A stretch of 19,086 nt of DNA from Promethearchaeota archaeon. Its GTDB lineage: Archaea > Asgardarchaeota > Lokiarchaeia > Sigyniarchaeales > SOKP01. The stretch spans positions 1 through 19,086 of the forward strand of contig JAGXNO010000057.1 of the NCBI GenBank assembly GCA_019894975.1. The letters run 5' to 3'. This document shows, piece by piece, positions 12,131-17,626 of the stretch. Position 1 is the stretch's first letter. Every line of letters begins with the position of its first letter. The position numbers and the translations under genes were made by a program. The notes beneath the pieces were generated by a model that was given only the letters and a program-made list of their open reading frames with translations, was not told the origin of the DNA and searched no databases.

Positions 12131-15100
12131 ATGGTTAATATGAAGCTCAAAATTAAAAGGTACCTAACCAAGAAGGTAAATTTTAAAATTAATTCAAGAA
12201 ATTTAAAGAAGAGTTTAACCTTAAAAAAAATCCTACGATTATCAATTATTTTAATAATAATTTTATCAATTAATATTCCAACCCTTTTAAAAGAATTTGA
12301 TAAGCAAACCATAGACGATCATTCATTTAATGAGATATATCTAAATTCTAGCAATCAAACAGATCAAATGTTTAAATTCATTTATGGTACTCAATTTGGG
12401 CCTGACTATCTCGATCCTCATTATGCTTGGGAACAAAATTCTTTTGACGTAATTGAACAAATATGTGAAGGATTATTTCACGATAATTTGAGTAATCCTA
12501 ATATAGACATTACCCCAAACTTAGCAAATGAAACGGGTACTTGGCTTATAAATGCTACAGATGCATGGTATACACTTTCTCTTAGATCTAACGTAACTTT
12601 CCACGATGGCACTAAATTTAATGCAACTGCCGTTAAGTTTTCTTTCGATAGACTTGCTTATTTAATGAATATAACGGGGACATTACCAGCGAGTACAGGA
12701 TTGAGTAGAATTGATTCGGTTTATCGTTGGCCTGATACAACTCCTTATATTAATAGAACAGAGATTGTTGATGAGTATACAATAAGATTTGTGTTAAATA
12801 AACCTTTTTCAGCATTTCCAAGTTTATTATGCTTTTCTGGTTCTAATATCTTATCACCTAACTCGACTAATGCAACTGGTTATATAAGCACTCTTACTGG
12901 AGATCTTACCGGGACAGGACCATTTGTATACGATGAATATCTCTCCGGTATTGAAGTAAGATTTCATGCATTTGATGATTATTGGAGAGGAAAAGCAAAA
13001 ATAGAATTACTAACATTTTCAATTGTTTCTGATCCGGTTCAAGCATTATTATCAGGTGAAGTTGACTTGATAAGTGCTCCCGATTTCGATAAGCTGAGTA
13101 TCTTGGAAGCAGATCCTAATATTAACGTAATAAATGTTGGAAATGGTAGCACTATGTATTTTATTGAAATGAATAATAAACTCCTCAATAAAACTTGGAG
13201 AGAGACAATTTCATTTGCAATTAATTACTCGCAAATTCTCGATGAATTATGGCAAGGGGAGTATAATAGATTACGTACTCCAATTCCGGATAGTGTACTT
13301 TTTGCTAATAATACAAATAATGTAGCTACATTTGATATATCATATGCCCGGAGTGTAATGCAATCCATGGGTTTTGGTGTTGGATGGGATGTTAACTATC
13401 CTGGAACCAACGAAACGCAATGGACATCCGCTACATTTGCTACAGACGCATTTGGTGCGCCTATAGATCTTAATTTAATCTCTCTGAGACAAAGAAATCC
13501 TATAATAAATGCCTTTTTAATGAATAATTTATCGAAGATCGGCATTGATCTCAAGGAAACAGTTAGAACTTGGATAGAATTCTTAATAGCTGGAGAGAGT
13601 AACCCTGATGAACTCGGCCTTTGGTTCTTTGGTTGGGGAGCTGATAATTATGATCCATTTGACTTAATGAATTTTTTTTTTCATAATGAATCTATATATT
13701 CTACAAACTTTGCTCAAGTTAATGATCCATACCTTCAAAATCTTATTGATAATGGGCTAATTGAAACTAATCCTACCGCTAGAGAAGCAATTTATAATGA
13801 AATCCAAAGGTATCTCGTTGAAGAGAGTATGCCATGGGCGTTCTTAGGTATTAATCGCAACTTTGATGCATATTATGATTATGCTCTTGGATATCAATCA
13901 AATTCATTTGATGGGGTTAGTTTTTATGAAGTATCGCAAAATAGTACATTATTCCCAGGGAAAATTTATTTAAATGGAAATCAAGAATGGGATTACTTAA
14001 AGGCATTAGGGAAATGTACTGGTTCGGGCACTTCTATTGATCCTTACATAATTAGAGATTTAGTTATAGACGGTGGGAATAGATCCCAAAGTGGTATTTT
14101 AATTGAAAATTCAGATGTCTATATTGAAATTAGAAATTGTACAATATTTAATTCAGCAGGAGCGGGAATTGAATTTAATAATGTGAGTAATTCTAAAATT
14201 GTTGGAAACAATTGCTCAAATAATAGTTTCGGAATATCATTAGATAAGATTTCAATTAACAATGAAATTTCTGCTAATTTTATAAGCAATAACAATCAAT
14301 ATGGTATTATTTTGAATAATGTTAATAACATGTCGGGAGCTTTAATAATCTTTAATAATACAATAATTTGGAACAATGTCAATGCTTACGATAGTGGACT
14401 TATCACTGATTGGGACAATGGACTGATAGGTAATTACTGGAGTGATTATGATGGTGTTGATGAGGATAATGACGGTATTGGTGATACCCCATATACTATC
14501 CCAGGACCTTCAGGGACCCAAGATAATTTTCCACTATATGATAGATATATAGTTCCCAGTATTGAGGACTACGTACCTTCGGATCAAATAATTAAAGTAG
14601 GGATTTTAGGGGATCCGAGTCATATTTCCTGTGAACATGCTTGGGAAGGTGCATTTCTTGCAGCAAAAGAAATTAATGAAGCTGGTGGGGTTTTAATAAA
14701 TGGTAGTATATTCTATATAGGTCTTATTTCACAAAATACGTTTGAAGCGGAACAAAATCTTGATATTTCTAAAGGGATTGATGCTGCGACAAATTTAATT
14801 TCAACATATAATCCTAATTTTATCATAGGAGGATTAAGATATGATTTTATATCAGCGTATCTTGAACCAATTATGGATGCTCAAATACCATTTCTTCCAA
14901 CAACTAGTTCTGTTGACAATTTCACCCAGAATGTCTTGGATAATTATACTCGGTATAAGTATTTCTTTAGTCATATGCATAACAATACAGAAATAGCAAG
15001 AGAATTCATAACTTTTCATATTTATCTCACTTCATTATTATCCATTACTTTAAGTAGGTCGGTTAATAAAATCGCAATTCTCCATGATAATCAAGGTTTA

Positions 15101-17626: not shown

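Follow-up and report, generated by a model that had tools for sequence, protein, structure and literature searches.

A lokiarchaeial membrane protein joining two transporter-type binding domains to a TIR domain and an adaptin-like platform

Does a single gene of an Asgard archaeon encode a surface receptor with a TIR domain as its output? The question is raised by one gene on contig JAGXNO010000057.1 (Promethearchaeota archaeon, assembly GCA_019894975.1), of which we analyzed positions 1 to 19,086, referred to below as the window. The gene (12131..17626, + strand, alternative start ATG at 12140) was delimited by its open reading frame (ORF) and by orthologues and codes for a membrane TIR receptor-like protein of 1831 amino acids (aa). 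A first-pass annotation, made from the letters alone, had described it as one uninterrupted ORF of a probable Asgard archaeon with a family-5 binding protein, a β-helix, a LIV-BP-like binding protein, two immunoglobulin (Ig)-like repeats, a transmembrane (TM) helix and a TIR domain. The reading frame is indeed continuous, each of these domains was recovered in that order, and homologue labels together with genome grouping assign the host to the Lokiarchaeia/Promethearchaeia. Two elements were found in addition, an N-terminal hydrophobic segment and an adaptin-appendage platform at aa ~1601–1733. The architecture is solid and unexpected, the mechanism putative, and the family looks convergent and class-restricted.

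The chain begins with a basic N-region (13 Lys or Arg in the first 50 aa) and a hydrophobic helix (12131..12289, from hydropathy). A family-5, DppA/GbpA-like solute-binding domain follows (12362..13951; Pfam SBP_bac_5, aa 128–521, E = 8.6e-53), connected by a NosD-like right-handed β-helix spacer (13961..14545; NosD/Beta_helix, aa 648–775, E = 7e-11) to a type I, LivJ-like Venus-flytrap domain (14573..15814; Peripla_BP_6, aa 829–1162, E = 1.9e-9). Two bacterial Ig-like repeats (15815..16354) form a Big_7/Big_13-like stalk. Behind the TM helix and its positive-inside stop (16370..16501) lie the TIR domain (16532..16924; TIR_2, aa 1470–1578, E = 2.8e-10), the TBP-like platform subdomain of adaptin/COP appendages (16931..17329) and a terminal four-helix bundle (17339..17566). 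All features are on the + strand, and the four Pfam matches exceed the curated cut-offs. The Ig-like repeats are a minor, membrane-proximal portion of the ectodomain. An internal-repeat comparison resolved aa 1229–1412 into two copies that are 35% identical (E = 9e-12); Pfam matches to Big_7/Big_3_3 are weak, and the ESM features score 0.91 against Big_7/Big_13 clusters.

An exact look-up of the 1831-aa protein gave no match. Four DNA runs from two studies contain at least 76% of the sampled words, and no RNA run was among those listed. The full architecture is present and collinear in GCA_016839705.1 (72–90% identity per domain) and in GCA_030603295.1, and GCA_048939005.1 has the same order as far as its contig end. 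Every domain is under purifying selection. Since two independent assemblies share the complete architecture, an assembly chimera, a concern of the first-pass annotation, is excluded for practical purposes by sequence comparison.

Hydropathy analysis yielded only two hydrophobic segments in the whole protein, at aa ~34–53 and ~1416–1434, and the second is directly followed by the motif HRRKKRRK. In 12 homologues, N-glycosylation sequons amount to 2.3–4.8 per 100 aa between the two helices and to 0–1 behind the TM helix. Lys and Arg residues number 8–12 after this helix and 0–1 before it (~10 and 1 in the receptor itself), and the juxtamembrane segment is conserved. From the sequon and charge biases we strongly infer that the binding domains are extracellular and the TIR domain is cytoplasmic, so the proposed outside-TM-inside topology holds up computationally. 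Promethearchaeum syntrophicum likewise has a family-5 binding protein, N-glycosylated, as its main glycoprotein (PMC11284389). The N-terminal helix could be either a signal peptide or an uncleaved signal anchor; in the latter case the protein may be doubly anchored, which leaves the single-pass label unproven. An L-[KR]-[ST]-S-like motif, possibly a processing site, recurs in many family members 20–30 residues past this helix (window ~12330–12360).

A receptor-like pattern became apparent when the protein was compared with its family. The TIR domain is 80–90% identical across orthologues whose ectodomains differ (family-5 plus type I binding domains, type I domain only, or β-helix only), and distant members have a WD40 ectodomain or just a few TM helices. 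The ratio of nonsynonymous to synonymous substitution rates (dN/dS) is 0.05–0.11 for the TIR domain, the most constrained part, and about 0.16–0.40 for the ectodomain modules. Variable ectodomains over a conserved TM-TIR signalling tail are the pattern expected of receptors. In a second subfamily, built as TM-linker-TIR without a platform, the same ectodomain parts are combined in many ways, in proteins of up to 3,619 aa. Altogether three TIR lineages bear large ectodomains, the third on contig C55 of the host genome, and receptor copies were found in tandem. As judged from these domain combinations, the receptor is one product of a shuffled domain toolkit. The TIR-platform module occurs in 12 of 161 genomes of the class; related TIRs were detected in 52 of 400 genomes of the phylum, all within the class Lokiarchaeia. 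NCBI phylum labels of the homologues are inconsistent (Hodarchaeota, Thorarchaeota, Hermodarchaeota), and these range estimates were made without them.

Several further products of the family were observed. Ectodomain-less proteins with 1–4 TM helices and the same TIR-platform-helical tail (L058:6528-8048 (+); P0043-P0065) are candidate membrane adaptors or co-receptors, and one ectodomain-less TIR-platform protein sits two genes upstream of an orthologous receptor. TM-linker-TIR proteins, with many β-helices and as many as two family-5 domains, are arranged in arrays (L134:4575-15431; L041:7027-13587; L037), whose convergent neighbours include LRR-PCI proteins (LRR, leucine-rich repeat), a RelA/SpoT-TPR-SLOG protein (L038) and one of 526 aa with no Pfam match. 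In giant surface proteins (L140, L144, L159, L094, L097), two to four binding domains stand in tandem and the cytoplasmic tail is very short or missing. The same ectodomains also stand over TIR-less tails, either of appendage Ig, platform and helical parts or of 218–276 aa without a domain assignment (P0103, P0104, L033:361-4431, L147, L154, L170); these tails are other outputs of one toolkit. The TIR clade further includes 296-aa fusions of a small-GTPase-like domain with TIR and soluble TPR-, LRR- and WD40-TIR proteins (P0073-P0094).

The TIR fold assigned earlier to the C-terminal region is reproduced by an AlphaFold model of aa 1460–1831 (pLDDT 90). Fold comparison gave Z-scores of 15.1 for Hydra TRR-2, 14.7 each for MAL and MyD88, 14.4 for SARM1 and 13.9 for IL-1RAcPb, and a TM-score of 0.73 (by target) for AbTir; at the sequence level, the TIR profile is matched best by prokaryotic TIR/SEFIR proteins. 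The domain has the FISY first strand. Glu1542 (codon 16754), at the catalytic position in helix αC, is invariant in 37 aligned TIRs and aligns with the helix glutamate of C. elegans TIR-1. Box 2 (RDxxPG) and Box 3 (FW), as defined in PMC7075850, are absent from the TIR alignment. The residue four positions before Glu1542 is Pro1538, and across the TIR clade this position is mostly Pro, Ala or Ser instead of the WxxxE aromatic. All cyclizing TIRs carry an aromatic residue there (10.1101/2022.05.07.491051). Because proline replaces the WxxxE tryptophan, linear ADP-ribose or a scaffold role is likelier than cyclic signals; if the TIR domain is active, linear ADP-ribose would be the expected product.

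A gene for a 575-aa membrane Nudix protein was found a few genes away from the receptor in three syntenic loci. For at least 15 of the 26 closest copies of this Nudix gene, a TIR gene lies within 10 kb, and the Nudix gene is present in 11 of the 12 genomes with the TIR-platform module; both counts are among kin and not independent. PADLOC profiles gave no match for the receptor, and no ThsA-like gene is present in the window or the syntenic loci. On contig C55 of the host genome (G000), positions 4264–9082 hold a short gene of Ig-TM-TIR type together with a broken TIR, an ATPase-like remnant and a platform-helical ORF on its own, divergent from a membrane Nudix gene. This stretch resembles a decayed receptor locus.

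Fold search with the AlphaFold model identified aa ~1601–1733 as the appendage platform. The closest match is α-adaptin (1w80, Z = 14.1, root-mean-square deviation 2.3 over 111 aa), followed by β2 (Z = 13.3), β4 (Z = 12.9) and γ-COP (Z = 11.5). For the terminal bundle, an identity as Vps28-C was suggested by PMC10936438; neither this domain nor a Vps28 steadiness box received a Pfam, HHalign, PDB-profile or significant fold match. Its best fold Z-score, 4.7, is to unrelated bundles, the RST/PAH/CARD hints are not significant, and a search of ESM Atlas features returned no result for the tail. The platform-helical module stands at the end of about 100 protein clusters; the majority lack TIR, and some are family-5-TM proteins. 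Another protein of the host genome (L060:7-1803 (+)) combines winged-helix repeats with a region resembling an appendage and a match to Vps28-C, like published Asgard adaptin-Vps28 fusions.

The two binding domains differ in how well their pockets are preserved. The family-5 domain is nearest to GbpA, HbpA and DppA and keeps Trp502 and Asp505. The latter, nearly invariant among fused copies, aligns with Asp432 of GbpA, the equivalent of Asp408 of DppA, which holds the peptide amine (PMC3295651). The type I domain has a profile match to 4gnr (E = 3e-11) and an insignificant one to ANF_receptor (E = 0.099). LivJ-type domains that are part of a fusion fall into a single clade (support 100) that excludes the stand-alone ones, and livH/M permeases are located at 17 of 20 stand-alone loci and at no fused locus. 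By its sequence relationships the receptor's type I domain is derived from Lokiarchaeial LivJ-like proteins of ATP-binding cassette (ABC) systems.

Its cleft loops have diverged over a conserved scaffold. Cleft loops, assigned by alignment to solved LivJ and by fold topology, are more conserved than the scaffold in stand-alone proteins (0.65 vs 0.45), whereas in this receptor's subfamily the cleft identity is 0.34 and that of the scaffold 0.64, with dN/dS values of 0.82 and 0.29, respectively. The motifs GGFRTES, TGAATD, LxWT, PxIS and GID, near-invariant in ABC-linked relatives, are gone from this subfamily; the second receptor subfamily mostly retains them. Eight of the 11 fastest-evolving sites fall within cleft loops. 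Site models (custom script, 13 sequences, fixed tree, recombination unmodelled) gave no significant positive selection (M2a vs M1a no gain; M8 vs M8a p = 0.16). By these patterns the pocket is either relaxed or repeatedly retuned. Since the cleft lost residues that are invariant in ABC-linked relatives, amino-acid sensing is doubtful and a fixed amino-acid ligand for this domain seems unlikely, which leaves the original proposal, that extracellular amino acids control the TIR domain through it, unsupported in that form.

On the basis of what was observed, namely the order and folds of the domains, membership in the family, the pattern of selection and the gene context, we propose the following mechanism, whose chances of being right or wrong we consider evenly balanced. 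The protein would be a surface receptor activated by clustering and presumably built by domain shuffling, in which the TM helix links a glycosylated ectodomain on a β-helix/Ig stalk to the TIR-platform-helical module in the cytoplasm. An extracellular ligand would bind to the ectodomain, a peptide held by the family-5 pocket being the most plausible case, and the LivJ-type domain could serve as a spacer, an association module or a retuned pocket. We infer that clustering is controlled by the ligand. Binding would gather receptors, and the TIR domains would then assemble and cleave NAD+ to linear ADP-ribose, which the frequently linked membrane Nudix protein could read or clear. The adaptin-type platform may recruit partners or sorting machinery.

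A number of observations weigh against this mechanism. Most surface proteins that carry these binding domains have no tail (25 with tails of at most 16 aa and 11 with TIR among the fetched loci, a biased sample); fusion alone is therefore no proof of the sensor role that the first-pass annotation had inferred. The cleft loops of the family-5 domain are more variable than its scaffold, and those of the LivJ-type domain are hypervariable although positive selection is not significant. Loss of the WxxxE tryptophan reduces activity in AbTir and SARM1 (10.1101/2022.05.07.491051), and many non-enzymatic TIRs retain the glutamate at the catalytic position (PMC7075850). No membrane Nudix gene is present in the window, the one in the host genome flanking the TIR gene on contig C55, and the genome of the closest orthologue (G012, 92% complete) gave no match to the membrane Nudix query.

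Part of this evidence would suit a defence or contact sensor, a possible reading that we nevertheless regard as somewhat unlikely. Here an adhesin-like or decoy ectodomain would bind viruses, symbiont cells or surface proteins, and the TIR domain would fire on clustering or damage and not in response to a nutrient. The patchy distribution within the class, the tandem and decayed copies, the rapid shuffling of ectodomains and the hypervariable clefts are consistent with such a role, and most characterized prokaryotic TIRs function in immunity (PMC11249213). However, the locus is a stable housekeeping neighbourhood, and the lack of a PADLOC match, the site models and the retained peptide-amine aspartate all argue in the other direction.

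The missing WxxxE tryptophan and the adaptor TIRs MAL and MyD88 among the best structural matches would instead fit a non-enzymatic scaffold or cargo receptor. In this case TIR and platform would gather ligand-loaded ectodomains for membrane trafficking in an ESCRT-0-like manner. A role as ESCRT-0 analogues has been proposed for Asgard adaptin-appendage multidomain proteins (PMC10936438), and the presence of the platform as well as its mostly TIR-less occurrence with the helical bundle, including in family-5-TM proteins, would agree with this role. We consider it distinctly unlikely: the second receptor subfamily has the TIR domain without a platform, Pfam, HHalign and fold search detected no Vps28-C domain, which the described proteins typically have, Glu1542 is invariant, and TIR genes cluster with Nudix genes.

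We consider it highly improbable that the protein captures a substrate on a tether for a transporter (the neighbouring APC permease or an ABC system acting in trans), the TIR domain providing an additional 'transceptor' output. Such a role would account for the conserved permease neighbour and for tail-less proteins with several binding domains, and the main glycoprotein of P. syntrophicum mentioned above is of family 5. APC permeases, on the other hand, require no binding protein, and other genes lie between permease and receptor at three loci. The host genome has complete dpp and liv operons, each with its own binding protein. In agreement with the first-pass annotation, the ORF list and Pfam contain no ABC permease or ATPase gene in the window, and none is linked to the receptor in the orthologous loci. 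Furthermore, the TIR domain is the most constrained part of the protein and the LivJ-type cleft is degenerate. An assembly chimera or chance fusion, finally, has next to no probability in spite of the 8.55% contamination of the source metagenome-assembled genome, given the complete order in two other assemblies (up to a contig edge in a third) and purifying selection in every domain.

The first-pass annotation had likened the protein to animal IL-1R/Toll receptors. This comparison stands for the layout: Toll-like and IL-1 receptors and Hydra TRR also have an extracellular module, a TM helix and a cytoplasmic domain of TIR fold, and the family includes ectodomain-less membrane TIR relatives as well. 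It fails for the parts. Toll-like receptors have a leucine-rich repeat ectodomain, for which the receptor has no match in Pfam; IL-1 receptors bind their ligand by one or three metazoan Ig domains, whereas the Ig-like repeats here are a bacterial-type stalk; Box 2 and Box 3 of Toll/IL-1R TIRs are both missing; and the platform in the tail is an extra feature. We regard the layout as convergent with Toll/IL-1R and found no evidence of shared ancestry in the sequences. With the enzymatic TIRs SARM1, AbTir, Thoeris ThsB and SPARTA TIR-APAZ the receptor has the fold, the FISY strand and the glutamate at the catalytic position in common; unlike them, it is membrane-bound under a large ectodomain and has Pro, Ala or Ser in place of the WxxxE aromatic. 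Thoeris and other catalogued TIR defence systems are recognized by a profile match and a cognate effector gene close by; the receptor has neither a PADLOC match nor a ThsA-type partner.

Venus-flytrap domains are the sensors of class C G-protein-coupled receptors, natriuretic-peptide receptors and bacterial BvgS-type kinases. Common to all of these and the present protein are transporter-derived binding domains on the outside of a membrane signalling protein. The output here is a TIR domain, type II and type I domains are both present, and the type I cleft is degenerate. Class C G-protein-coupled and natriuretic-peptide receptors have seven TM helices or a kinase-homology/guanylate-cyclase output, in contrast to one internal TM helix and TIR. 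The ABC proteins DppA/GbpA and LivJ belong to the same domain families, and the family-5 domain retains their peptide-amine aspartate; the differences are the absence of a linked permease, the stalked membrane fusion and the loss of LivJ-type pocket motifs. Asgard adaptin-appendage multidomain proteins (10.1101/2020.10.19.343400; PMC10936438) likewise have a platform fused to varied N-terminal domains, domain shuffling and a patchy distribution. In the present protein, by contrast, only the platform half is found, directly behind a TIR domain and in a membrane receptor. TIR is unmentioned in the main text of both papers.

Such appendage fusions have thus already been described; their combination with TIR in a receptor was not found described, and no description of Asgard TIR receptors was found in the literature searched, which covered few subscription papers. 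Outside animals, transporter parts gave rise to the ectodomain-TM-TIR layout, and a vesicle-coat ear domain was placed directly on a receptor tail. Because the family is convergent and, among the genomes searched, confined to a single class, it does not account for how Toll receptors originated. Environmental sensing by Asgard archaea is still largely an open question; for Asgard LRR proteins, receptor functions were considered unlikely in a recent structural survey (10.64898/2026.10.28.762692). The present family offers testable candidates for surface receptors with an output other than a histidine kinase, and the size of each module would permit its expression and assay. The most far-reaching version, which we rate as rather improbable, is that Lokiarchaeia independently evolved ligand-gated TIR receptors in which a peptide pocket controls NAD+ cleavage, Nudix reads the ADP-ribose and the adaptin ear couples to sorting. 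If true, sensing, second-messenger output and trafficking would be united in one archaeal chain.

The receptor gene is embedded in a conserved neighbourhood. According to Pfam and the syntenic loci, an APC-family amino-acid permease gene (10633..11976, +) is the upstream neighbour, and a convergent radical-SAM gene (18092..18838, −) is the downstream neighbour that marks the locus. Directly after the receptor gene, sequence comparison detected a second copy of the terminal helical bundle (17761..18030, +; 42% identity). It may be a small gene in its own right or what remains of a tandem paralogue, the latter because relatives (L052, L057) have whole tandem receptors at this place. A PFL-like glycyl-radical enzyme gene (7202-9601, −) and the radical-SAM gene flank the receptor locus, possibly as enzyme and activase. 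The window also contains a gene for an AN1-type zinc finger fused to HEAT-like repeats (6554-7069, −) and four tandem, mutually similar MFS transporter genes (269-5640, +).

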